Below are positions 1 to 41,609 of a DNA stretch of 41,609 nt, piece by piece. Position 1 is the first letter of the stretch. Each line of letters begins with the position of its first letter. The stretch lies in IMG/VR virus record IMGVR_UViG_2939152649_000003. The stretch is one strand, 5' to 3'. A program made the position numbers and the translations under genes. Below the pieces are notes generated by a model. That model saw only the letters and a program-made list of their open reading frames with translations, had not been told where the DNA came from and did no database searches. Origin of the DNA: a virus (Duplodnaviria > Heunggongvirae > Uroviricota > Caudoviricetes).

Positions 1-549
1 TCAGCTAGCTGGAAACTTTTTATACAGAGTTGAGAGCCCTACTCCATACGTTTTTGATACGCTTTGTCGTGATTCACCGGTTGCCATCCGCTCCCCCATT
101 TCCCGCCATTGCTCATCCGTGAACTTAGGCCTGCGACCACCAACTCGCCCTTTTGCCCTGGCTACGGCCAGCCCTGCTAAGGTACGTTCGCTATTAAGAT
201 CAGATTCATATTGTGCTGCGGAAAGGATGTTACGAAAGTTATAGCGGCCGCTGGCTGTTTTGAGATCCACGCCATCGGTAATACTGCGGAAGTTGATACC
301 CTTTTCCTGTAACTGCTGGAACATCAACAGCGCATGCAGAACGTTGCGGCCTATCCTGTCCAGCTTCCAGACCACCAGTTCATCCCCCGGCTGCATAGTG
401 GCGATCAGCCGTTTTAGAACCGGCCGATTCGATTTCCTCCCGCTGGCATGCTCTTCAAAAATTTTCTCACAACCCGCTGACTTGAGCGCCGTTAGTTGCA
501 ATTCAGTGTCCTGGTGGTTTGTTGATACTCGGGCATAACCGTAAATCAT
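1..549 (-). CDS. pin: Serine DNA invertase (Gin/Pin/Hin/Cin family)
   Basis: 182-aa product begins MIYGYARVSTNHQDTELQ (resolvase catalytic Ser motif) and ends with an HTH (SRQSVSKTYGVGLSTLYKK); strongly resembles Gin/Pin. ATG at 549 follows an AGGAGA RBS. The ORF-track start at 594 is an upstream extension. Confidence 0.9.
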   Translation of the reverse strand: MIYGYARVSTNHQDTELQLTALKSAGCEKIFEEHASGRKSNRPVLKRLIATMQPGDELVVWKLDRIGRNVLHALLMFQQLQEKGINFRSITDGVDLKTASGRYNFRNILSAAQYESDLNSERTLAGLAVARAKGRVGGRRPKFTDEQWREMGERMATGESRQSVSKTYGVGLSTLYKKFPAS

Positions 550-608
550 GGGATTTCTCCTGTTATGAAAACAGGAGAAACGGCGAAGCATCACCAGATT
601 TTTGATGG

Positions 609-634
609 TTATAAAAAAGGTTGGTTTGGGAGAG
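609..634. repeat. Invertase crossover site, left (gix/hix-like): TTATAAAAAAGG-TT-GGTTTGGGAGAG
   Basis: 26-bp site with AAACC/GGTTT-type half sites around a central TT dinucleotide. It is the imperfect inverted copy of the site at 2156..2181. Confidence 0.6.
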
Positions 635-970
635 GGAGCAAAATTAGGCGCAGCGGTGTGTGTGACCGGCTCTACAGGCTATATGACTATCCCGGCAATG
701 GTCGCCGGGAAAGAACGGGTGATCATATTGCAGTGGTTTGGTGCTGCTACAACTGATTATGTGACACCAGTAACTGCGAATTTCCCTATTGCATTCCCAA
801 ATGAGTGCATGATTCCGTTATTTAGTGATGTATCAACTGGGGCAGTTGATTTGAGTTCTACAGCCGCATATAGCTTAGCGGTGGGCCGATCATACTATAC
901 GACGGTAACAAGAACTCAGATTACATGTGCTGGCTACGGTGGCTTTAGAGTTTTCGCGATTGGATGGTGA
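623..970 (+). CDS. Alternative tail-fibre C-terminal variable segment (silent in this orientation; no N-terminus of its own)
   Basis: Open frame from the left crossover site to TGA at 968..970. Shares the FPIAFP motif with the expressed variable segment. The upstream M at 602 lies outside the invertible segment. Confidence 0.5.
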
Positions 971-975
971 TTAAT

Positions 976-1395
976 ATGTTTTATTCTGCAAAAGAAAATG
1001 CGTTCTACGCTGATGAGCTAAAAAGTATTTATGAAAATGCAGGTAGCTGGCCTGACGATGCCGTTGAAGTAGACTATTCCGTATTCGTTGAGTTTGCCGG
1101 AGAATCACCTAACGGAAAATTACGCGCTCCTAATTCTGATGGTTTACCTGAATGGATAGATATTCCCGAACCAACTGAAGAGGAAATTATTGCGTTGGCA
1201 GAAGCCGAAAAATCGCGACTGCGTGCTTCAGCTGACTCTGAAATAGAATGGCGGCAGGACGCCGTTGATGCGGGGATCGCGACGGAAGAAGAAACTGTTT
1301 CATTAGCCGAATGGAAAAAATACCGGGTGCTGCTGATGCGAGTTGATACAGCAGACCCGGACTGGCCTACTCCTCCGGCGACTCAGGCCAGTTGA
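976..1395 (+). CDS. Tail fibre assembly protein (alternative copy)
   Basis: [28 protein letters not shown]... is a paralogue of the minus-strand copy ([30 protein letters not shown]). Start is coupled to the stop of the alternative fibre segment. Confidence 0.7.
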
Positions 1396-1798
1396 TATCT
1401 GGTGCGCTGGATATGTCCACAGATTCCAGCGCATCGAGATAATCCAGCCACTCGTTATACTGGGCCTTCTCGTCGTCTGTAAGTCGCCCCAGCGCAGCTT
1501 TACCCGGCCACTGCTTGCTGTTTATATACTCATTAGCCTGATCGATACGATACTGTTTTTCAGCTTCAGCTGCTGCGATTTCCTCCTCATGGCTTAAAGG
1601 TGGAATGTCTACCCATGCCGGCATTCCATCCTCAGTAGCTCCACGAGTTTTACCCTCTGGTGGCATCCCCGAATATTCAGTGAATGTCTCATCTGAGACG
1701 GCTATGAGATCGTCAGGCCAGTTTCTACTCGCTTCATAAACATCTCTGAGCTCATCAGGGTAGAAAGCGTTATTTAATGCTGAATAAAAATAAGCCAT
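1367..1798 (-). CDS. Tail fibre assembly protein (expressed orientation)
   Basis: 143-aa Tfa-like product directly downstream of the fibre gene. Its 3' end overlaps the alternative copy convergently by 29 bp. Confidence 0.75.
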
Positions 1799-1801
1799 TT
1801 A

Positions 1802-2437
1802 TTAATACCCCACAGCAAAATAGTTAAACCCGCCAGCGCCGATGGATGATTCAGCGTAGGTTCCTGTCTGATAAGCGCGTAGCTGGAAATTAGTTCTCGT
1901 AAAATCCTGGGCGGTTAACGCAAAACCTTGACCTGTACCCCCAACACTCTGGTCTGTTGCAACAACACATAGCGCCCTGGTTGGAAACGCAATCGGGAAT
2001 GATACTGTTTCTGGGGATGTTCTCGTTATGGCTATTGCCCATTGAAGAATTAACCCGCCTGGCAGGTATTGATACCCCGAATCGGCTCGCTGATTACCAA
2101 ATGAAGACATGTCCGGAATCTGTCCGGAACCAGTGCCAACATTTTTTTTTGCCGCATCTCCTAAACCAAGGTTTGTGGTAATCGCTGTCGCCAGCTTTGC
2201 CACCAGTCCATCAACGTCACCATCATCGAGCGCGTCCAGTTCGGCGTTCGCGATAAACTGCCCCAGTACAGCCGCCATCGTCGACGGTTGGCGCAGCGCT
2301 TTACTGACCTGTGCGCTGGATGCTTTACCCGAGGAGAATCCTTTCTTCAGTGCGGTTAGCGTCTCCCATTCCTCCTGCGAGGTAACATTTGCATTAGCAT
2401 CTGTCGCAAACGCTTTAAAATCATTAGTTCCAGCCAT
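1802..2437 (-). CDS. Tail fibre protein (constant N-terminus fused to invertible C-terminus)
   Basis: ATG at 2437 overlaps the upstream stop (TAATG coupling) and follows a GGGGGAG RBS. Gly/Ala-rich fibre-like sequence. The crossover site sits in the middle. The ORF-track start at 2455 is a possible alternative. Confidence 0.7.
   Translation of the reverse strand: MAGTNDFKAFATDANANVTSQEEWETLTALKKGFSSGKASSAQVSKALRQPSTMAAVLGQFIANAELDALDDGDVDGLVAKLATAITTNLGLGDAAKKNVGTGSGQIPDMSSFGNQRADSGYQYLPGGLILQWAIAITRTSPETVSFPIAFPTRALCVVATDQSVGGTGQGFALTAQDFTRTNFQLRAYQTGTYAESSIGAGGFNYFAVGY
2156..2181. repeat. Invertase crossover site, right (gix/hix-like): ATCTCCTAAACC-AA-GGTTTGTGGTAA
   Basis: Contains the hix-like core AAACCAAGGTTT. 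Its reverse complement aligns with the left site (GGTTTrGGAGA half sites) and has the same central dinucleotide. It lies inside the tail-fibre coding sequence at ...ITTNLGLGD. Confidence 0.65.
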
Positions 2438-3117
2438 TAAAGTAATCTCCCCCATGCGCCGTCATCAAAACCGGCGATGTATTCGTTATCCATGTCAAAT
2501 CCAAAGAATTTTGTTCCTTCGGACGGTGTTTCAACCGAAGGCATTTCAACATCACCGGCCCAGACGCCAGCGGCTTTAACGGTGAGATAGCCCTGTTTGA
2601 TAGCGGCGATCAGTTCGAGAGACACATCAGAAATATCAGTCTCGGGAAATACCCAGACCGATATCGTCATGTCCTGATTGTCGACGATCTGCATCTTCAG
2701 GCCCGAACCCACTGTGGCAGTGTCAAGAATGTCCGGAAGCGAGTCGTTACGCCCGTCCCAGTTGTTAATAGCGATTTTTGCTTTCAGAATAGTGCGATAG
2801 GTATCATCGCTAAGCGTCGTATAGCCGGAGTCAGGATCATATGGCCCCTGCCATACGCCCTGGTCATATCCGAGCCCCTCCGTGTCCCAACTGAAATAAA
2901 CGCCACTAATGGGCTGGCTGACTATACGGCTACGTCCAATCCAGAGTCCGAGAATATCGAGTTGCACGCCAACAGCCGTATCAATGTCAAACGCACTCAC
3001 CAGGCCCCTTGTGGCTGACGTGATATCAATCAGGGGACGGGTACTAAGATCGATGTGATCGAGGTATTTCGGCTTAGTGGCGTGGTAGTTAGTGATTAGA
3101 TCCGTGTACCTACTCAT
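2437..3117 (-). CDS. Baseplate/tail protein (gpI-like)
   Basis: 226-aa ORF between the baseplate J-like gene and the fibre gene, which is the typical gpI position. Overlaps the J-like gene by 4 bp. Confidence 0.5.
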   Translation of the reverse strand: MSRYTDLITNYHATKPKYLDHIDLSTRPLIDITSATRGLVSAFDIDTAVGVQLDILGLWIGRSRIVSQPISGVYFSWDTEGLGYDQGVWQGPYDPDSGYTTLSDDTYRTILKAKIAINNWDGRNDSLPDILDTATVGSGLKMQIVDNQDMTISVWVFPETDISDVSLELIAAIKQGYLTVKAAGVWAGDVEMPSVETPSEGTKFFGFDMDNEYIAGFDDGAWGRLL

Positions 3118-4313
3118 GACGTCACCGTGATAACGATGTTTGCCGGTTTACATGAAGCTGATTCGTCGTAGGCTATGGTTATGTTTGCCGATGCTACGGA
3201 TCCTGCTGATTTACCGATGAGTAATTCCTGGATGTCGTAATAACGCGCGCTACCGCCGCTGACCACCCCGAGGTTGGCAGGTGAATAAATGCGGCTCAGC
3301 AGCACCGAATCACCGATCGTCAGGTCGTTGATGTAATCCGCAACGGCCTGCTGAATCTCCTTACCTATTTGTGATGTGTAACCCGCGAAAGCTTTCAGCG
3401 TTATATGTCCATAAATAGGAACATCCGTTGACCGGGAGAAGCGAATCACATGGGGATTACCGTATTTATCCGGCACCGTGACGGCTGTCGCACCATACGT
3501 TGACACCCCCTGCCCCTTATTGCCCCGGATGGCCTGGGCGATTTCAGTCAGATCGCCGCCATCCACGATGGCAGAGATAGAGTGTGGCGGCAGCCCATTA
3601 CTGTCGGTCGTGCCGGTATCATTCTCGTAGAGCTTGTGACGTGTAACCCCTGCAACGTTCACTATCGCGCCGTCCACCCCTTCAAACGGCGTGATGGAGG
3701 GTAGCGCGACACTCTGCCCCTGCCGGATGCGCAGCTCTGCGTCGGTTTCCGCCGGGGATCCGACGGTGGCCGCCGCGGGGTTAGTTACCGAAGTCCAGCC
3801 GCGGGTCGGTGTGTTAATGGTCGTGACCGTTCCGGACAGCGCGGCCACTGCGCCGCTATTTGAGCAGGTGGCAGTGACCGTCGCCGTCCCGTCTAAACCA
3901 ATTACCACGGAAGCCGGCATGCTCCAGACCAGGCCATTCTTATCCCTGACGGAGCCATTCGAAATGGTCGTACCGGCCGCGCCGGTAAGCAGCAAATCAA
4001 CCGTTGAGTTGGTAGCCGTTCTCCTTTTAATACCGTTTATTTTCACGTTCTTGCTCAGCCCTGCGCCATAAGCGGTGGCAGGCGAAAAGCTGTTGTAAAC
4101 AGCAATGGCCGTGTTGTTAGCATCGTGAATAGCCAGGGCCACCAGCGCCACCATCTGCCCGTCTTTGCTGTCAGGATCCAGATAAGCATCGCTGCCATAT
4201 ATCTGCTTAAAGTAGTTGGTCAGGGTGTCCAGTATTGTCTGGTAATCAGGCGCGCTGATCCCCTCAGCGGTTACCGTTGCCGATAAGCCGAGCGTGTCCA
4301 AATTGAGGGCCAT
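3114..4313 (-). CDS. Baseplate J-like protein
   Basis: 399-aa ORF. Size, position and sequence character fit the baseplate J family. Confidence 0.65.
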   Translation of the reverse strand: MALNLDTLGLSATVTAEGISAPDYQTILDTLTNYFKQIYGSDAYLDPDSKDGQMVALVALAIHDANNTAIAVYNSFSPATAYGAGLSKNVKINGIKRRTATNSTVDLLLTGAAGTTISNGSVRDKNGLVWSMPASVVIGLDGTATVTATCSNSGAVAALSGTVTTINTPTRGWTSVTNPAAATVGSPAETDAELRIRQGQSVALPSITPFEGVDGAIVNVAGVTRHKLYENDTGTTDSNGLPPHSISAIVDGGDLTEIAQAIRGNKGQGVSTYGATAVTVPDKYGNPHVIRFSRSTDVPIYGHITLKAFAGYTSQIGKEIQQAVADYINDLTIGDSVLLSRIYSPANLGVVSGGSARYYDIQELLIGKSAGSVASANITIAYDESASCKPANIVITVTS

Positions 4314-4667
4314 TTATGCCTCGCTGGTAAGGGTGGTTTGTCCGTAGATAGTGTTTATGGTGGCTGTGAACGTTACCCGGCGTGTCGTGCTTTCATTCAC
4401 GGTATCAAAGGCCAGTATGGACAGAACGCCAGGTGTGGTGCTGATGCGATCCCTGATCGCAAGGTTATAAACCTCAGGCCTTTGCTTTCCCAGAACCGAC
4501 TGGATATAGGGTGTGCCCTCGGTTGTGTCCAGAAACCATTGCCCCTTCCACAGTTCAAAGCGCGTTTTAACGGCCTGGGCCACGCACTCGGGTGAGTTGA
4601 CCAGAAAGGTGTCATCGCCCTGGCCGAAGGTGTAGTCCCCGTCGTCGTCTTCGCGTCGGTATCGCAT
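4314..4667 (-). CDS. Baseplate wedge protein (gpW/gp25-like or Mu gp46-like)
   Basis: 117-aa ORF between the V-like and J-like genes. Confidence 0.45.
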   Translation of the reverse strand: MRYRREDDDGDYTFGQGDDTFLVNSPECVAQAVKTRFELWKGQWFLDTTEGTPYIQSVLGKQRPEVYNLAIRDRISTTPGVLSILAFDTVNESTTRRVTFTATINTIYGQTTLTSEA

Positions 4668-4669
4668 AA

Positions 4670-5323
4670 TTACCCTCCCAGTGGTTTCGTATTGCTGCCG
4701 CCGACTTCCACGCCGCCATGCGTATGCTTATCAACCATGGAGCCATCCACCAGCTGCAGGCGGCCGTCAGGCAGAATTTTCAGACCGTTAAGGTTGAAGC
4801 CTCCCGGCGCGGTTCCCGTTATCGCTCCGGATGAAGGGTTAAGGCTCAGTTTTGTTCCACCGTCGTCACTGCGCAGTTCAACCGCACTGGTACTGATGCT
4901 GCTGATTTTCTGCGCCTGCGACTGCGGACCCACAATGGCAAACGCATCACTCAGGTCATGCTGGCGCGGGTCAACCGGTTCCTGCACCCCGCCGCTCTGC
5001 CACCAGAAGTCGATGCAGCGATCGGAGAAGACCAGGAGGCACTCGTCACCGGCCTTTACCGGGAAGGTTAACGTGCAGCCACCGCCGCGGGGGAACACCA
5101 CTGGAACGTCTGGCAAAATCGGTATCTCCTCAGAAACCAGAGCGCCATCGTCGCTGAGCCGCTGACCGTAGATGGCTGGCTGCACGGTGCATGTCACTGT
5201 TTCAGGGTCAAAGGACTGGATGATCCCCGGCAAAGCCACGCGCAGGCTGCCGAAAATGGCGTGGCGGTGCGCCTCAAGAGTCTGCGATTCGTTGCCGTCC
5301 TGCGCGCGGGCTGATACTGGCAT
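4670..5323 (-). CDS. Baseplate assembly protein V-like (spike/hub)
   Basis: Likely start MPVSARAQ at 5323 with a GGAGAAA RBS. The ORF-track start at 5371 would read through the upstream terminator hairpin. Gly-rich C-terminus with HTHGG. Confidence 0.6.
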   Translation of the reverse strand: MPVSARAQDGNESQTLEAHRHAIFGSLRVALPGIIQSFDPETVTCTVQPAIYGQRLSDDGALVSEEIPILPDVPVVFPRGGGCTLTFPVKAGDECLLVFSDRCIDFWWQSGGVQEPVDPRQHDLSDAFAIVGPQSQAQKISSISTSAVELRSDDGGTKLSLNPSSGAITGTAPGGFNLNGLKILPDGRLQLVDGSMVDKHTHGGVEVGGSNTKPLGG

Positions 5324-5334
5324 AGCTTTCTCCA

Positions 5335-5362
5335 GGTAATAAAAAACCCGCCGAGGCGGGTT
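5335..5362 (-). terminator. Intrinsic terminator (minus strand) closing the moron block
   Basis: Minus strand reads AACCCGC-CTCG-GCGGGTT followed by TTTTTTATTACC, immediately upstream of the gene V RBS. Confidence 0.45.
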
Positions 5363-5541
5363 ACTGATCAAATGTCAGGATTTGAGGGTGAGTTAATGCG
5401 TGCTATTTATCTTCATTGCAGCTCTTAATATAGGTTTTGCTTAGAACCACGGTAACGTCGTGATTTGTAGCAAGATACAGGCTGCTAAGGAAAAGCCGGT
5501 AGGCAATTTTTAGCTTCTCTCGATAGGGGCCTGAAACCTTT

Positions 5542-5787
5542 ATGCCAAAATCAGAAACAACCATAAAATTTACTCCAGCTATTTGGAAAGAGTTACTTCC
5601 TGTAATCCAGGATAACATACCCGCTAATGACTATGTAGTAAGTAAAAGAGTCAGAACGGGTGATTCTCCTGGCGCTATTGGCACAATTCTCGAAATATCT
5701 ATTACCGTTATCACATCATCACCAGCTTGTATCGCCATTGCATCGATAGCGAGAAAATGGTTACAGACCAGATCATCAAAAAAATAA
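5542..5787 (+). CDS. Hypothetical protein (AT-rich moron); the -1 frame continues open to 5891
   Basis: 81-aa ORF ending ...SSKK at an A7 run (5778..5784) followed by TAA. The -1 frame stays open for 35 more codons and stops just before a plus-strand terminator. Minus-strand ORFs 5403..5618 and 5631..5822 overlap it and are read as antisense shadows. Confidence 0.35.
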   Translation: MPKSETTIKFTPAIWKELLPVIQDNIPANDYVVSKRVRTGDSPGAIGTILEISITVITSSPACIAIASIARKWLQTRSSKK

Positions 5788-5895
5788 CGGTAACCACTGA
5801 AAAAGGTACGATCGAAATACAAAATCTGACATCAAAGGTGCTTTCAGAAGTACTGGAGCAGTACAAAATTATAAGTTTTAAAGACGAGTAACTGA

Positions 5896-5922
5896 GCGCC
5901 GGTAGTTCCGGCGCCTTTATTA
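5896..5922 (+). terminator. Intrinsic terminator (plus strand)
   Basis: GCGCCGG-TAGTT-CCGGCGC followed by CTTTATT, 5 bp after the stop of the -1-frame extension. Confidence 0.45.
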
Positions 5923-5924
5923 AA

Positions 5925-6281
5925 TCACTTAGCCTTCACGCAGTCGTAAGTTCCAAACACTCGAGGTTCATTCATGTTCATTCTGATGGCCTCGGCATTG
6001 AGTATCCCTCTCCCATTGCGTTTTATATAATCAAGACCATAGCGCTGCCCAGAATTCTCATTCATGACAATCCATTGCATTTTAATATTGTCATAATCTC
6101 CCTCTTTTTTGAGGAATGTCACCTTCTGACTATCAGGCTTTGCTCCGTTTATCCTCGGATATCCGTCGTTGCTTGATGAGGTTGAGAAAGTAAAGGGACC
6201 ACACTTCATATAAGCGGTGTTTGCCGCTGTAGAAGAAAAACTGACGAATGCTAAAGAAACCAAAAAAAGTATTTTTTTCAT
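5925..6281 (-). CDS. Secreted hypothetical protein (moron with signal peptide)
   Basis: N-terminus MKKILFLVSLAFVSFSSTAA is a typical Sec signal peptide. AT-rich codon usage unlike the flanking baseplate genes. ATGA start/stop overlap with the upstream gene. Confidence 0.6.
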   Translation of the reverse strand: MKKILFLVSLAFVSFSSTAANTAYMKCGPFTFSTSSSNDGYPRINGAKPDSQKVTFLKKEGDYDNIKMQWIVMNENSGQRYGLDYIKRNGRGILNAEAIRMNMNEPRVFGTYDCVKAK

Positions 6282-7348
6282 TGTGGAGCCGTTCGCTGTA
6301 GGGCCGTATTCGATTGTAAATCACGCGCCCCTCTGGCCATACACATGAGATCCATATACCACGGATTCCCTCTCGTATCGCCGGTGTAGCTGATTGACTG
6401 AACTATGTAAACGCCATCAGTTGCCACACTGGCGGGCTGCGCAAGCGTCGCGCTGCCTGTACTAAGATTACCATTATCATTTGCCTCAGTAATCCTTGCC
6501 TGTGATCTTTGGATCTCATCGTTCGGTAATTGCGAGCGATACACCGAGTCCTGGTTCAACTGAATAAGCCCGTTAACCCGAATGTTTGGATTAATGAGAC
6601 AGCGCACATTAACGCCTGCCCCCATGGTTTGCTGAGGCATACCGACCAGGCCAGTTTTGGTGTTAAGCACGATCGCTTCATGGAGATATTTATTCTCAGG
6701 CACCATTTGCAGCTGGCCGTCGACAAATTGCCAGTTAGCCTCGCACTGCGCCGCTAGGTTGCTCATGTAGTCGCGCGTTGCGCCGAAGAAGACGCGACCG
6801 CGTGGCATCACCCTGTCAGGGAACTGCCCGGTGATGCCCTGGGTGATGCCGTAAGGCGAAAAGTCCTTCATCAGAAGTGTATGCACGTCGGCAAGCTTAT
6901 ATCCTGCCGCCAGGCTGCCGGACGATACGGCTTCGTTGAACGCCTTATGACCATCTACCGACTGAATTAGCGTAAAAATATCGGTAGGATTATCGCGCCC
7001 GGTTATCGTAAAACGAATCTCCCCATCAAAAATGACTCCGTAATTTTGCCCGCGCGTCTGGCCGGTTTGCTCAGATGAAATCTCGGTAACCTGCCCAACC
7101 TCGCTTTCAGTAACCGTCGGCGCCAGGCCGTTATAACCGGCTATGATGGTAATGCGAGAAAACTCATCCCCCGTAATCCGGGTGATTGTGTCACGCTTGA
7201 GGTTGTAAATTTTAAGCGTCGCCACACGTGGCCACATCGAGTTAAACCAGTCGATTGCGAAGGTAACTTTAAAGTCCGACAGGGATATGCCATTCCCCTT
7301 GTCGTTCAGAAGCCGCAGTTCAAAATGGCGATTCCAGTTAATAGTCAT
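6278..7348 (-). CDS. Tail/baseplate hub-like protein
   Basis: 356-aa ORF in the baseplate cluster downstream of the tape measure gene. Assigned by position and size only. Confidence 0.45.
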   Translation of the reverse strand: MTINWNRHFELRLLNDKGNGISLSDFKVTFAIDWFNSMWPRVATLKIYNLKRDTITRITGDEFSRITIIAGYNGLAPTVTESEVGQVTEISSEQTGQTRGQNYGVIFDGEIRFTITGRDNPTDIFTLIQSVDGHKAFNEAVSSGSLAAGYKLADVHTLLMKDFSPYGITQGITGQFPDRVMPRGRVFFGATRDYMSNLAAQCEANWQFVDGQLQMVPENKYLHEAIVLNTKTGLVGMPQQTMGAGVNVRCLINPNIRVNGLIQLNQDSVYRSQLPNDEIQRSQARITEANDNGNLSTGSATLAQPASVATDGVYIVQSISYTGDTRGNPWYMDLMCMARGARDLQSNTALQRTAPQ

Positions 7349-7351
7349 GGG

Positions 7352-7657
7352 CTATTCCTGAACAAAATAAAGATGGCTCGAGGCACCAAGGTTTGTTTTC
7401 GTCGGGTATTCAGGGGCTCCGTTGTCTGTCATGACCACCAGTGCGCCAGATATCCCCAGATCCGGATACTGAGCCAAAAGGTTAACCCCCGGCACCAGGG
7501 GGACGCCCATTAACAGAGGCTGCGCGCCGCTATCCATAACGTCCATTATCCAGCCAGCATCGTCGCGCCATAGCACGCGGAGCGTGTAGCTTATGTCGCC
7601 CAGGGTGATGCGAAACTCCTGGTTATCAGGGATCATCGGAATCTCATTAACGCTCAT
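7352..7657 (-). CDS. Tail-associated hypothetical protein
   Basis: 101-aa ORF, coupled within the tail operon. Confidence 0.4.
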   Translation of the reverse strand: MSVNEIPMIPDNQEFRITLGDISYTLRVLWRDDAGWIMDVMDSGAQPLLMGVPLVPGVNLLAQYPDLGISGALVVMTDNGAPEYPTKTNLGASSHLYFVQE

Positions 7658-8232
7658 TATCCCCTCGCAAAATCGGCTATCTTTTGAATTACAGATGAGC
7701 TGCTGGTCGGCACCAGAGATTTCATCCCTGTATTCTGTACTGGCGCGGTGCTGACTCCCTCCTGCATGTTGGCCTTATCCGTAACAGTGATGCTCTGCGT
7801 ATCCGACATGATCACTTCCCGCAGCGTCAGAACGCATGACAGCACATTTTCGCTGGTTCGGTCCGTCGTGGCCTCGATAGCGCGTATCAGCATATTGCTG
7901 TAGGTGCGCTTGCCGGTAACAACATCAAACGGCACCCGGGATTTCTGCAGATCCAGCAACTGCTGATAAATCTCCCTTGGGCTCTCGCCAACCCGCAAGC
8001 CTATGCTGGACAGATTTACCAGGTCGAGTACCGACCCGCCGCCGGCAAACCCGCACTCCATAGTGACCTCGCTGGCGCGCTTATAGGCGTGGTCGTTTAT
8101 GGCGGCGCCAAACTCCACCGGATGTTCAGTGATTTCCAGGGCATCAACATGCTTCTCCGACACCACCACGTCAGGTACAAAAATACCTATTTTCCGAGAC
8201 TGCAGCCGGAAGATGACCGATAAAATATCCAT
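7657..8232 (-). CDS. Tail-associated protein (distal tail/baseplate)
   Basis: 191-aa ORF. Its ATG overlaps the tape-measure stop (ATGA). Confidence 0.45.
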   Translation of the reverse strand: MDILSVIFRLQSRKIGIFVPDVVVSEKHVDALEITEHPVEFGAAINDHAYKRASEVTMECGFAGGGSVLDLVNLSSIGLRVGESPREIYQQLLDLQKSRVPFDVVTGKRTYSNMLIRAIEATTDRTSENVLSCVLTLREVIMSDTQSITVTDKANMQEGVSTAPVQNTGMKSLVPTSSSSVIQKIADFARG

Positions 8233-35727: not shown

Positions 35728-35865
35728 CGAAAACCCCGCGCAAGGCGAGATTCACGTCCGGTGCCACCGACCAAAGTTACACCGGAATTTATACCAAACC
35801 AAAAAACATCCAATGGGCGCTATCTCTGGCCCGGGGATTCTAACACTCAAAAAAGAGGATCTCAC

Positions 35866-38775
35866 ATGGAATTTTTCCATCTGATAAAAGCCAGTCAGAA
35901 GTCTGGCAAGAAAGATGCAGTGATTTGGTTCACTGCGAAAAGTGTAGCGCGCGCCAATCTCCAACTCGATGTGGCACTGGAAGAAGCCGGAATTGAAGAA
36001 ACTGGCCGCGGTAAAGATTATGCCAAACCAATCCGCACCGATTTCCCGGTATATGACGACCTGCCGGAAGAAGGCGCAGTGGATTACACCTGGTGCAAAC
36101 GCTACGAACTGCAGAACGATGACCGCACCTGGATGCCAAAAGTCACAGCTGAAAACTCTGACGAGAAAACGGCTCAGACCGTTGATAGTCACATAACTAC
36201 TGAGTCAACGCTGCCAGAAACCGCTGGCATCACGCTGGACGAACACGACGACGACTCAACCCTCTACCCGGTAGTGCAGATGCCGTTTCGTAAGCAACTG
36301 CTTTCCCAGTTCACCGCCGACGAACTGCGCCACCACGTAACCCGCGAAGAGTACGAAGCTATCGGCGCGCTGGAGATGGACACTGATAACAGTTACGTCC
36401 AGAACTTGCTGTTAGCTGCTGAGAACTGCCCGGACGTGAAGGGTTACGACACCAAAGACCTGTGGCGCTACACCGATGCCATTCGCAAAGTGTTCAGCCA
36501 GGACAAGCGTCACGAACTCGCGCTGGTACTCCGTTTCACCAGAATGTGGGCGGCGACTGATTACATTGACCGTGGCATCCTGGCGCGTGAATGGGCTGCC
36601 GGTAATCACATCAGTAGTGTTCAGCGTACTGATTCCGGAACCAATGCCAACGGCGGTTACGTCACTGACCGTGGACCTGATGCATACCATACCCTTGACA
36701 CTCTCGATTTAGAGATTGCATGTGCCCTTCTGCCTATGGACTTCAACCACTTCGAGATCCCGGGCAGCATTCTTCGTCGCGCTAAAGAAATCGTGACCAA
36801 AAAAGAAGAACCGTGGAAATCATGGAGCAGCATTCTGCGCAATCAACCCGGCGTTCTTGGCGTTAACCGCACAGCTATTTTTAACCTGATACGTATCGCG
36901 CCGGAAAATATTCATCTAACTCCTGTCGCTCACCTGGAGTTTGTTAACCGGACCATGACTGCTGCGTTTAATGCTGCTGTTGAGTTATTGCCATTGCATG
37001 AAGCTGAGCCCGCAACACAGGAAATTCCCCAACCTGAAAGTAAGGAGTCTCCACGCAAACCCTTCTGCACTCACGAAGAGAACCTGCAACGCGTACGTGA
37101 AGAAGAAGCACGCCGCCGCGCAGAGGAAGCGACAGCACAACCACATAAAGCCGAACAAGAACTGGTTAAAAATGTCGGCAACGGAATATTCGATGTTACG
37201 GCTTTACTGCAGAACTCAGCAACTCATGGCACGAAACAGGCTACGGAAACCACCAGCAATGTGCAGGTTCAAGAAACTGTCAGTGATGAAAAAAATGTTG
37301 GTAATGAAATGCAGTCAGGCGAAAGCAGTCTGGAAACTGGTGAAGAGTCACATCCCGGCCAGCAGGCCGATGTAAACCAAAATACGGAATCTGTCGCTCA
37401 AAATAGCGATTCTGTAAACCAGACTGAACCAGTTTTGGCACACGTCGAGCCAGAGGCGCAATCTGACGAACAAGCTGTTTTTTACCCCGATTACTTCGAG
37501 CCTGGGCGCTATGAAGGTCTGCCGAACGAGGTTTACCACGCTGCCAACGGCATCAGTTCCACCTAGGTAAAAGATGCGCGCGTTTCGCTGATGTACTTCA
37601 ATGCGCGCCACGTTGAGAAAACCATCGTCAAAGAGCGCTCCTCAGTGCTGGACATGGGAAACCTGGTACATGCGCTGGCGTTGCAGCCAGAACAGCTCGA
37701 TGAAGAATTTAGCGTTGAACCCGTAATTCCGGAAGGTGCATTTACCACCACGGCAACGATCCGCGCGTTTATTGATGAGTACAACGCCAGCCTGCCAGCG
37801 CAACTGAGCGCAGACGATATCAAAGCTTTGCTGGATGAATACAACGCCACCCTGCCAGCGCTGGTGCCGCTGGGCGCTAGCCTGGATGAAACGGCGCAGA
37901 ACTATATGGCGCTGCCAGCTGAATTCCAACGTATCGATGCAGATCAGAAGAAGACAGCAACAGCAATGAAGGCGTGCATCAAAGAGTACAACGCCACCCT
38001 GCCAGCGCAGATTAAAACCAGCGGCAGCCGCGACGCACTACTCGAACAACTTGCGATTATCAATCCTGACCTGGTCGCGCAGGAAGCTCAGAAGCTGCAA
38101 CCGCTGAAAGTCTCTGGCACGAAGGCCGATCTGATTCAGGCCGTGAAGGCAGTCAAACCAGATGCAGTGTTCGCCGACGAGCTGCTCGATGCGTGGCGCA
38201 ACAACCCGGAAGGGAAAGTGCTGGTTACCCACCAGCAACTTGCCACCGCGCAGGCAATTCAGTCAGCACTGCTCTCGCACCCGACCGCAGGCATGCTGCT
38301 AACCCACCCGAGCCGCGCCGTTGAGGTGAGCTACTTTGGCTTTGACGAGGAGACGGGACTGGAAGTTCGTGTGCGCCCTGACCTTGAGATCGACCTAGAC
38401 GGCGTGCGTATCGGTGCTGACCTGAAAACCATCAGCATGTGGAATGTTAAGCAGGAAAGCCTGCGCGCCAGGCTACACCGGGAAATTATTGAACGTGATT
38501 ATCACCTGAGCGCGGCTATGTACTGCGAAACCGCAGCGCTGGATCAGTTCTTCTGGATTTTCGTCAACAAAGACGAGAACTACCACTGGATCGCCATCAT
38601 CGAGGCATCCGCTGAACTACTGGAGCTGGGTATGCTCGAGTACCGCAAAGCGATGCGCAATATCGCAACCGGATTCGACACAGGTGAATGGCCAGCGCCA
38701 ATCACTGCTGACTACACCGACGAACTGAACGACTTCGACCTGCGCCGCCTTGAAGCGCTGCGTACTCAGGCATAA
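35866..38775 (+). pseudogene. recE: RecE-like exonuclease VIII gene interrupted by one in-frame amber codon (37564..37566)
   Basis: ORFs 35866..37566 and 37591..38775 share one frame, separated by a single TAG. The stop falls in YHAANGISST*VKDA, aligned with the lambda-exo motif WH..RLGVITASEV. The PD-(D/E)xK core RPDLEIDLDGVRIGADLK lies downstream. Confidence 0.6.
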
Positions 38776-38780
38776 GGGGA

Positions 38781-39899
38781 ATGATGATGGAAAACACGAA
38801 TATCGTAACCGCTGAACAGCAGACTCCAAACACGATCTCAGCCAGCAATGCCATTTTCAACGTGCAGGCTTTAACCCAGCTTCAGTCTGTCGCCGGGTTG
38901 ATGGCACAGGCAGCCGTAACGGTGCCTGAGCACCTCCGCGGCAATCCGGCAGACTGCATGGCCATCATCATGCAGGCGATGCAGTGGGGTATGAACCCTT
39001 ACGCCGTGGCGCAAAAGACGCACCTGGTTAACGGTGTCCTGGGATACGAAGCGCAACTGGTTAATGCGGTGATCTCCAGCTCAAACGCCATCGTTGGCCG
39101 CTTTCACTATGAGTACGAGGGCGACTGGTCGAAATGTGCCAGCAGCCGCGAGATAACCGTTAAAAAGCCTGCGAAAGGTGGCGGGACGTACGACAAGAAA
39201 GAAATGGTACGCGGTTGGGAAAGTGCTGATGAACAAGGACTGTCGGTACGGGTAGGTGCCGTTATTCGCGGTGAAAGTGATATCACCTGGGGAGAGCCTG
39301 TTTTCCTCTCCAGCGTAATCACACGTAATTCTCCACTTTGGGTATCAAACCCGAAACAACAGATCGCTTATCTGGCACTCAAATACTGGGCGCGCCTGTA
39401 TTGCCCTGCAGTTGTTCTTGGTGTGTACACCCCTGATGAGATTGAACAGCGCACAGAAAAAGAGATCAACCCAACGCCGCAACGCGTTAGCCTGGCTGAT
39501 ATCTCAGGTGACACCGTCACAACCACGCAAAGCGCACAGGAATCGTCGGTAAATGTCGACTCTCTTGCCGATGATTTCCGCGAACGCATCGAATCTGCTC
39601 AGGACGTGGATAGCGCCAAATCGCTGCGTGCCGACATTGAAACGGCGAAAGCTACGCTGGGATCCGCACTATTCACCGAGCTGAAAAACAAAGCCGTAAA
39701 GCGTTATTACCTAGTGGATGCACGCAACAAGGTTGAGGAGGCTATTAAATCCCTGCCCCAGCCCGACGAGCCGCATGCATCCGAACGGTTCGCTGAAGCC
39801 GAGCGCATGCTTGCATCTTCAAAGCGTCACTTAGGCGATGAACTGCACGATCAATTCAGCATCACCCTGGCGGATATGAAACCGGAATACGTGGCCTGA
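38781..39899 (+). CDS. recT: RecT-like single-strand annealing protein
   Basis: 372-aa ORF directly downstream of the RecE-like gene. The segment AMQWGMNPYAVAQKTHLVNGVLGYEAQL resembles the RecT core. Confidence 0.55.
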   Translation: MMMENTNIVTAEQQTPNTISASNAIFNVQALTQLQSVAGLMAQAAVTVPEHLRGNPADCMAIIMQAMQWGMNPYAVAQKTHLVNGVLGYEAQLVNAVISSSNAIVGRFHYEYEGDWSKCASSREITVKKPAKGGGTYDKKEMVRGWESADEQGLSVRVGAVIRGESDITWGEPVFLSSVITRNSPLWVSNPKQQIAYLALKYWARLYCPAVVLGVYTPDEIEQRTEKEINPTPQRVSLADISGDTVTTTQSAQESSVNVDSLADDFRERIESAQDVDSAKSLRADIETAKATLGSALFTELKNKAVKRYYLVDARNKVEEAIKSLPQPDEPHASERFAEAERMLASSKRHLGDELHDQFSITLADMKPEYVA

Positions 39900-40221: not shown

Positions 40222-40419
40222 ATGGATGATATTTTGGTAACGTCAGACCTGACCAGTCGCTACAAAATTTCACGCAAAACCCTTTGGTCATGGCAAAGTG
40301 CAGACACAATGCCTCGGGGCTTCGTATGCCCGTTCCCACCCCCTGACTGGCCCGGCAACCCTAACCGCTGGCGCTCTGAGTCAATCAAAGAGTGGGAGGA
40401 TAAAAAGAAGATAAATTAA
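40222..40419 (+). CDS. xis: Excisionase / AlpA-family DNA-binding protein
   Basis: 65-aa product [25 protein letters not shown]...FPPP...W with a GGAGAG RBS. Convergent with int. Confidence 0.65.
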
Positions 40420-41609
40420 CTGAAGGGCTCTCCGATGATCTCTTCAAGATGGCTCTGCCAAACGCGGAGCCAGTGTTTCTGATCATCGATATAGTCATGA
40501 AGGTTGTAATGCGCCATAACCCCCACCATCTGATGCCCGAGCAGCTTTTCAATTACGTGCGGCGGGCAACCTAACTCAGAGAGATTTGTGGCTATCGTCC
40601 GCCTCATATCATGAAGCGACCACTCTGCCATACCTGTTCCATTCCAAATAGAACGGGCGTAATTGGATGCCACAGGTGAATGAACGGGCGAATCTTTGAT
40701 CCCGCCATCAATTTTACGTTGTGAAGTCACCAGGTGATTGGTGTTTATTTTCTTGAGGTGATTTCTGACCAGGTTAACGGCGGCGTCTGAGAGTCCCCTT
40801 CTAATATGTACCCGAGTTTTATAACTGCCCGCAGGCACGACCCACTCATTATCATCCAATCGAAACCATGATCTCTCACTAAGTCGAATCTCAGCCGTAC
40901 GGCATCCGGTAAGCATAATAAATTTCACCAGGAAAACGGACTCTATCGACATATGGCTTTTCAACCACTGATAGATTTTGCGCAGATCGTCATCGTCCAT
41001 CCTGCGAGTTCTCTTTTTAGGCTTTTGCCCGACATCAGATGGCAGTAATCCCTCGAGTGGGTTTGAGGCGATCACACTTCTGTTAACGCAGAACCTAAAG
41101 GCCCGTTTGCACAGCGAAAGCATGTAATGAGCCATCACCCTGCTTTCTATAGAATCGAAGACGTTGATCCAGTGCATTTTCGCTGTGTTATCGACTTTGA
41201 CATTCTTCATCGGTTCGGCGATATGTTTCTCAAACACCTGGCGATAGTAATCGACTTTAACTAGCCCGTTAGCGATACAGTGCCTTTCAATCCAGTAATT
41301 GAACGCTTCGGCAACGGACATCGCTTCCTGTCGGGTCTGCTTATCCAGCTTCACCTGCTCTCGCGGATCCAGTCCCTCAGTTAACCAGTTTCTGAATTGT
41401 TGGCGACGCTCTCTTGCCTGGGTGATACTCATTGCAGGATAATCACCAACATTGAGTTTTACCGCTTTACCGGCCCAGCGATACCGATAGAAAAATGATA
41501 TTTTTCCGGCCTGGCTGATTCTGGCGTTGAGCCCGTGCGAATCAGAAATAATCTCGATATCATCTCTTTTCTTGCCGAGCGCCTTCCTGAGCTTTGTGTC
41601 GGTGATCAT
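40416..41609 (-). CDS. int: Tyrosine integrase (phage integrase family)
   Basis: 397-aa product with an N-terminal arm-binding domain and catalytic motifs (HDMRRT, LGH, HYNL). ATG is the last triplet of the window. Confidence 0.85.

Follow-up and report, generated by a model that had tools for sequence, protein, structure and literature searches.

The window, a 41,609-nucleotide stretch of DNA from the Caudoviricetes virus record IMGVR_UViG_2939152649_000003 (IMG/VR), very probably carries a functional inversion switch of the Din family (Gin/Cin/Pin type) that alternates two tail-fibre tips together with their matching chaperones in a temperate myovirus prophage at the yciI locus of Escherichia coli. 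The crossover sites, the reading frames, the family of the invertase and both exact orientations of the segment in near-identical isolates were observed directly. The invertase encoded in cis is the probable catalyst, and the two tips, judged by their sequences, would bind different receptors. The parts of the switch are as follows.

609-634, left (invertase-proximal) 26-bp crossover site: outer half TTATAAAAAAGG, central TT at 621-622, inner half GGTTTGGGAGAG
2156-2181, right (fibre-gene) 26-bp crossover site: inner half ATCTCCTAAACC, central AA at 2168-2169, outer half GGTTTGTGGTAA, which encodes ..TTNL
621-2169, invertible segment of 1549 bp, from central dinucleotide to central dinucleotide
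1-549, minus strand, serine DNA invertase gene of 182 amino acids (aa), phi80 PinL / HK225 type, read away from the segment; PF00239 (Resolvase, 3.6e-39) and PF02796 (HTH_7)
1802-2437, minus strand, expressed tail-fibre gene, 211 aa; PF21882 at residues 125-211, phrog_11303 at residues 3-96, phrog_1396 at residues 95-211
1367-1798, minus strand, tfa1, chaperone paired with the expressed tip; PF02413 (1.9e-38), phrog_188
623-970, plus strand, silent alternative fibre tip of 115 codons with a gp53-like C-terminal domain; PF21882 (6.8e-10)
964-1395, plus strand, tfa2, chaperone paired with the silent tip; PF02413 (Caudo_TAP, 9.4e-34)

The products of inverting 621-2169 were built in silico and then sought among assemblies and protein records. 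Window positions 1-5988 with this segment inverted are an exact 5,988-bp substring of the E. coli assembly GCA_013011885.1 (L027), located at the same yciI locus in contig DABHNR010000007.1 (176,826 bp), from which the native sequence is absent. The sister assembly GCA_013011825.1 carries the native (window) orientation in the counterpart contig DABHNO010000008.1 (176,825 bp), to which the first 7 kb of the window are 100% identical, and over the 3 kb of chromosome adjoining the prophage the two assemblies show no mismatch. These two essentially identical lysogens differ by exactly the 621-2169 inversion, and since both exact forms are present in sister assemblies, flipping has occurred in nature. 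The exchange falls within a 7-bp identical core that includes the central dinucleotide. The 205-aa fusion fibre predicted for the inverted state is on record in E. coli at 100% identity over its full length (P0002) and is also the expressed form in L027, and variants that are 97-99% identical are known as well. An exact look-up of the silent open reading frame (ORF) predicted for the inverted state matched proteins under four NCBI accessions, and a Logan contig also contains it; among 90%-identity cluster representatives, only relatives with other leaders were found for this ORF. Four contigs show the inverted state, several assemblies contribute protein accessions for it, and the inverted left junction recurs in an independent Logan contig. 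Both tips are also on record as silent fragments, each behind the same invertase-side leader. The cassette with the flanks of the window was found, in either orientation, in none of 5,426 complete E. coli genomes. The original prediction had called for reads supporting both orientations, and had named the lack of an inverted form combined with poor alignment of the sites to known invertase sites as the outcome that would speak against it. At the level of assemblies both orientations exist, GCA_013011885.1 being inverted and GCA_013011825.1 native, and the sites align well.

A repeat finder paired the two crossover sites as inverted repeat I2 (74% over an extended length of 35 nt). The pattern TCTCCYAAACCAA, which covers the 13-nt inner half plus core and was allowed at most one mismatch, has exactly two matches in the 41,609-bp window, at 621-633 on the minus strand and 2157-2169 on the plus strand; shuffled sequences yielded 0.07 matches on average, and none of 100 shuffles contained two or more. 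With a looser half-site scan exactly two sites were found, at the ends of the cassette, in 25 of 28 related loci, and one site in the remaining three, two of which are short contigs. Once the sites are aligned the core dinucleotide reads AA in both, which is the identity required for religation after a 180-degree rotation. Both central dinucleotides occupy codon positions 2-3, the crossover codon being number 90 in the fibre gene when ATG 2437 is taken as the first codon and number 7 in the 602-970 frame, and the junctions generated by inversion are therefore in frame. The identical inverted core spans only 7 bp (621-627 paired with 2163-2169) and lies inside a 13-nt stretch with one mismatch. 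Published Din sites include cix, mix, gix and hix as well as pixL (TTCTCCCAAACC AA GGTTTTCGAGAG) and pixR (TTCTCCCAAACC AA CGTTTATGAAAA) (PMC3241671 Table 3), and the window sites fit the consensus of that table: the inner halves, CTCTCCCAAACC and ATCTCCTAAACC, each followed by the core AA, agree with those of pixL/pixR (TTCTCCCAAACC AA) at 11/12 and 10/12 positions, respectively. The outer half-sites are degenerate, as in hixR, cix and mix, which is common in the Din family. An inverted pair of gix/hix-like sites with matching central dinucleotides in the same codon phase had been proposed from the sequence, and this pair is confirmed by the repeat finder, by its uniqueness in 41.6 kb and by its close match to published pix, cix and mix sites.

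The constant N-terminal 90 codons of the fibre gene (2168-2437) lie almost wholly outside the segment and the 121 variable codons (1805-2167) inside it. The gene most likely starts at ATG 2437, in a TAATG overlap with the upstream DUF2612 gene, rather than at 2455, and an identical 211-aa protein is on record (P0075). In the window orientation the silent tip has neither a start codon nor a promoter of its own. Both tips carry the PF21882 C-terminal domain and each is followed by a PF02413 chaperone gene, as expected of tail fibres with Tfa proteins. Inversion in silico converts the 211-aa fibre with tfa1 into a 205-aa fibre with tfa2, so the anticipated swap of fibre C-terminus and cognate chaperone holds; the lengths of 112 and 116 residues given for the variable C-termini had to be corrected to 121 (current) and 115 (alternative) when counting begins behind the crossover codon; if it begins behind the 26-bp site, they are 117 and 111. 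The two tips are 33% identical and the two chaperones 41%, a divergence that fits the predicted distinct specificities. The tfa genes converge with a 29-bp overlap at 1367-1395, at the coordinates originally reported, and an overlap of exactly 29 bp was present in every cassette type checked, whatever the tip (L001-L003, L015-L021, and tfaP/tfaE of e14 at L029 2518-2546). This overlap is quasi-palindromic (TGGCC...GGCCA) and codes for a shared C-terminal W-P motif on both strands.

We propose that the switch would operate as follows. The leftward, minus-strand late operon would read the constant 90 fibre codons into the 1549-bp segment and thereby express the tip and chaperone that face it. 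The adjacent serine invertase would bind both inverted 26-bp sites and cut at the central AA/TT, after which one pair of half-sites would be rotated by 180 degrees and religated, joining the constant part in frame to the other tip. The fibre would then change from 211 aa with tfa1 to 205 aa with tfa2. All ORFs and both sites are intact, and the full-length invertase retains the catalytic serine and the helix-turn-helix domain.

The invertase aligns end to end with the Gin structures 3uj3 and 4m6f (E=1e-56) and without gaps with Gin, Cin and P2-like Pin over 182 residues, and as a small serine recombinase it retains the catalytic Ser9 and R42. It is 52% identical to Gin and Cin and 55% to PinE (52-56% to Gin, Cin and P2-like Pin overall); Gin, Cin and P2-like Pin are 77-81% identical among themselves. 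The recognition-helix region (STLYKKFP) and the catalytic residues are kept, as in Gin and Cin. In Hin, Q151/R154/L155 and the basic residues 47/48/51 contact Fis and the enhancer (PMC3798978), and helix E contains the dimer-lock residues F105/H107/M109 (PMC4513852), of which H107 is the site of the Fis-independent mutation H107Y (PMC4513852, PMC3798978). The window invertase differs at these positions, with E150/E153/R154 in place of the Fis-contact triad, N104/R106/I108 in place of the dimer lock and K46/R47/A50 at the basic positions, Hin K51 being replaced by A50. The helix-E segment is GRYNFRNILSAAQYESDLNSERT throughout the PinL-type clade, compared with GRFFFHVMGALAEMEREL in Gin, Cin and Pin. 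Relatives that are at least 79% identical occur in Escherichia, Citrobacter, Klebsiella, Enterobacter, Salmonella, Serratia and Morganella, and in a comparison of twelve clade members (the window and eleven of these relatives) helix E was invariant, the Fis-contact triad varied freely and position 50 was never basic.

The original prediction also expected a Fis-dependent enhancer inside the invertase gene. The P1 enhancer is annotated at nt 19-90 of cin, and a crude, sequence-based Fis scoring scheme devised for this analysis placed sites centred at nt 30 and 78, 48 bp apart, in cin, gin and P2-like pin, with a pair score of 15.0. The homologous pair in the window gene, to which this scheme of our own was applied by hand, scored 9.5, and its distal site lacks both terminal G/C. 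Alternative pairs with 48-bp spacing elsewhere in the gene reached at best 12.5 against 15 for the known enhancers and were discarded as unconvincing. A canonical enhancer is thus not supported as expected: the stretch homologous to known enhancers obtains a low score, and the residues that would contact Fis are altered. Dependence on Fis and an enhancer is unproven and, from these features, possibly absent. The leader of the invertase gene contains a hairpin:

553-581, minus strand, 12-bp perfect hairpin in the invertase mRNA leader (GUUUCUCCUGUU / AACAGGAGAAAU), just upstream of ATG 549

The 3' arm of this hairpin holds the ribosome-binding sequence AGGAG, 5 nt before the AUG, and the repeat is annotated as IR3 upstream of pinL in phi80. 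The RNA fold of 530-608 (minus strand) has a free energy of -24.9 kcal/mol (z=-4.4), and 0 of 200 shuffles were equally stable. The hairpin may keep translation of the invertase low. A promoter scan returned 6 matches against 4.8 expected, which is background level, and no credible invertase promoter. The sole sigma-70-like match directed towards the invertase gene in this background-level scan lies at 809-836 (minus strand), inside the invertible segment; if it were real, transcription of the invertase would depend on orientation. The literature on phi80 pinL consisted of passing mentions, and no functional study was found.

The cassette was then compared with those of other prophages. Prophages at yciI with flanks that are 98-99.9% identical carry quite different cassettes of 1.5-1.95 kb between invariant outer half-sites, the outer half of the left site being unchanged in 14 further yciI-site loci with different cassettes (L001, L002, L008, L010-L012, L015-L022). 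A half-cassette, consisting of a tip and its chaperone, can be expressed in one genome but silent in a second, as comparison of the window with L010-L012 and of L017 with L021 shows. The whole cassette is identical over 1549/1549 bp in the unrelated P2-like prophage L003, where it has an H-type fibre gene (397 aa) on one side and a canonical Pin invertase on the other. The similarity to L003 ends at 2175 on the right, and left of 620 it falls to about 65%, as estimated from the overall identity of 94.7% over 347-2175. The similarity of this 100% identical cassette stops at the crossover sites, which may act as portable joints. Two other P2-like prophages (L004, L005) contain the cassette reversed relative to the fibre constant part and without an invertase gene, so that among P2-like prophages the same cassette is found in both orientations. 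Elsewhere the silent tip is joined to the constant region of an e14-type StfP (P0013, 65 contigs), and it also occurs in fibres of 259, 278, 318 and 465 aa. That cassette identity is bounded by the sites in unrelated phages lends support to an earlier proposal in which Din sites delimit the modules of evolving tail fibres.

Several of these loci have unusual surroundings. In L004 and L005 (2489-4195) the sheath gene lies about 115 bp beyond the cassette, and in L007 (GCA_052869775.1, 5001-8005) the same cassette has no adjacent invertase, is directly followed by an integrase gene and has a degenerate outer half-site (6/12). The cassettes of L004, L005 and L007 are either frozen states or reliant on invertases in trans. 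A metagenome contig (L009, ERZ27271682 k141_1968, 5001-7865) has the identical cassette, with both junction sites intact, between two different fibre constant regions, namely a window-type 211-aa fibre and, on the opposite strand, a 465-aa P2 H-type fibre. Either assembly created a chimera through the 1.5-kb cassette common to both, or an inversion took place between sites of two prophages in one chromosome.

Taken with the features of the invertase, these data suggest a broader but tentative reading, which we regard as possible rather than likely. The phi80-PinL-type invertases would be a separate clade of tail-fibre invertases, widespread among enterobacteria, whose members act independently of canonical Fis/enhancer control, since the Fis triad varies, helix B no longer has its basic residue, the helix-E lock residues are replaced and no enhancer homologue is apparent. 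Their expression may instead be limited by the hairpin, and the crossover sites may serve as portable joints for the exchange of tip-plus-chaperone cassettes among unrelated phage types (yciI myovirus, P2-like, e14-like).

Some observations weigh against a self-sufficient host-range switch at this locus. The effect on host range is predicted from the divergence of the tips (33% identity). The evidence for inversion consists of assemblies, not reads, and flipping inside a single culture was not seen. The invertase has neither the Fis-contact residues of Hin, Gin and Cin nor a convincing enhancer homologue, and for this reason its activity and control are not assured by analogy. Moreover, Pin-family enzymes act in trans on each other's sites (PMC12529663), and another invertase in the host could have inverted the segment. 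The main rival explanation follows from this last point: the segment would be flipped by a canonical Pin-type invertase elsewhere in the host (e14, Rac, Qin or a P2-like prophage), and the adjacent PinL-type enzyme would be inactive or have another role. The inner half-sites are indeed the same as in the sites of canonical Pin enzymes, next to one of which the identical cassette lies in L003, the adjacent invertase differs at regulatory positions, and L004/L005 and L007 have the cassette without any adjacent invertase. We nevertheless consider this unlikely. The PinL-type clade is widespread and strongly conserved, and its intact catalytic residues and a helix E that is invariant across genera indicate selection for function. 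The recognition-helix region of the adjacent invertase matches those of Gin and Cin, and the yciI prophages whose half-cassettes swap between the expressed and silent position all carry a PinL-type invertase.

A considerably less probable origin of the two orientations is homologous recombination across the short inverted repeats, carried out by general or phage-encoded (RecET) functions. Genes for RecE-like and RecT proteins are present in the prophage (35761-39899), and Rad52-like recombinases are reported to tolerate short homology (PMC3945230), but the perfect inverted core is just 7 bp, the exchange interval holds the central dinucleotide of a textbook Din site, and the invertase gene is adjacent to it. 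The early region at 35761-39899, which comprises a RecE-like exonuclease, a PDDEXK (DUF3799) protein and RecT, could, as a recombination system tolerant of short homology, add to half-cassette mosaicism. Least credible is that the switch is decayed or fixed and the opposite orientation in the sister assembly an artefact, for although both assemblies are drafts and were compared as assemblies, the inverted state recurs in several contigs and an independent Logan assembly, a 1.5-kb unique segment between repeats of 13-26 bp is not prone to misorientation, and no ORF or crossover site is damaged.

The locus offers a clean natural example of what would be host-range bet-hedging by a phage, both states having been caught in sister isolates. 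The annotations examined flag neither state as invertible, the labels used being 'hypothetical', 'gp53-like' and 'phage tail protein'. Fibre genes in such prophages are chimeric and orientation-dependent, which bears on host-range prediction, prophage typing and the engineering of fibres and tailocins, and the divergent clade could yield a compact inversion enzyme for Pin-type sites, maybe a Fis-independent one.

The window starts at the stop codon of the 182-aa serine recombinase gene and ends within an integrase gene (40416-41609), and its core consists of temperate myovirus genes for sheath, tape-measure, baseplate-hub, baseplate-J, capsid, portal and terminase proteins. In GCA_013011825.1 the invertase end of the prophage adjoins yciI-tonB, an attachment region that is also used by phi80 and HK225. 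The minus-strand late operon runs from baseplate J (3114-4313) through a DUF2612 wedge gene to the 211-aa fibre gene and tfa1; facing it on the plus strand are the start-less gp53-like fragment, which is part of ORF 602-970, and tfa2.

2437-3117, minus strand, DUF2612 / baseplate wedge gene (PF11041, 2.8e-46), directly upstream of the fibre gene and the last constant gene of the late tail operon

Beside predicted programmed inversions, genes with DUF2612 show a 25.7-fold enrichment (PMC9881135 Table 2). A scan of the window with Rfam gave 0 matches. The region 5372-6281, between the spike gene and the baseplate-hub gene, has a lower GC content (41-44% versus 52-62% around it) and codes for a protein of 118 aa whose N-terminus resembles a signal peptide and which matches nothing in Pfam. 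As the relatives L009, L010 and L011 carry a DUF4236 gene on the opposite strand in the same slot, this seems to be a variable moron position.

Of the known systems, the P region of e14, a cryptic prophage of E. coli K-12 with the invertase PinE, resembles the window most visibly in its gene order, site core and tfa overlap, and the likeness to e14 that was originally suggested is thus well founded. Both have baseplate genes followed by a fibre of about 210 aa (StfP, 209 aa), tfa, a convergent tfa, a silent fibre fragment and the invertase, and both have gp53-like tips with Tfa chaperones, tfa1 being 62% identical to TfaP over the C-terminal half; the tfa overlap is 29 bp in each. The site core TTGGTTTGGGAGA is the same and was recovered by a scan of e14, whose P segment has the inverted repeats TTGGTTTGGGAGAAGG (PMC12529663), with the core common to the window sites. 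They differ in that the window invertase is 55% identical to PinE and belongs to a separate clade, the fibre constant region is different, the baseplate neighbour is DUF2612 instead of the DUF2313 protein YmfQ, and the segment measures 1549 bp compared with 1797 bp in e14. Furthermore, the window is a complete 41.6-kb myovirus prophage and e14 a defective remnant.

The G segment of Mu (Gin) and the C segment of P1 (Cin) likewise switch the fibre C-terminus in frame together with its chaperone (S/U versus S'/U') at 26-bp sites with a 2-bp core, and in Mu the invertase gene is also located just outside one site and read away from the segment. In contrast to the window, the Mu and P1 segments are 3-4.2 kb, the fibres are long and the U and U' genes do not overlap, while the genes of Gin and Cin contain a Fis-dependent enhancer in their 5' part and the proteins have the Q/R/L triad that contacts Fis; neither feature is conserved here. 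The invertase DNA itself is 93-99.8% identical to that of phi80 pinL, HK225 (99.8%) and mEp237, including the leader hairpin and the left crossover site, and lies beside attP / yciI in these phages, so that the window myovirus shares their invertase-attP module. In these siphoviruses, however, the invertase is an orphan, with a single site followed by a fibre-gene fragment (annotated as a pseudogene in phi80) and no cassette (L023, phi80, 3531-4317; L024, HK225, 3501-4132). Invertible tail-fibre loci are also known from P2-like prophages of E. coli, for example in enteropathogenic E. coli (EPEC) E2348/69 (PMC4272514), and phase variation at such loci has been shown by sequencing. One P2-like prophage (L003) has the identical 1549-bp cassette between gene H and a Pin invertase; the constant parts of the P2-like fibres differ from that of the window and, at 397-465 aa, far exceed it in length, and the invertase is of the canonical Pin type. 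Mu, P1, p15B and P2-like prophages thus provide textbook or already surveyed cases of invertible fibres, and the switch in the window is of this well-known kind; its less ordinary features are the divergent invertase clade and the cassette identity bounded by the crossover sites.

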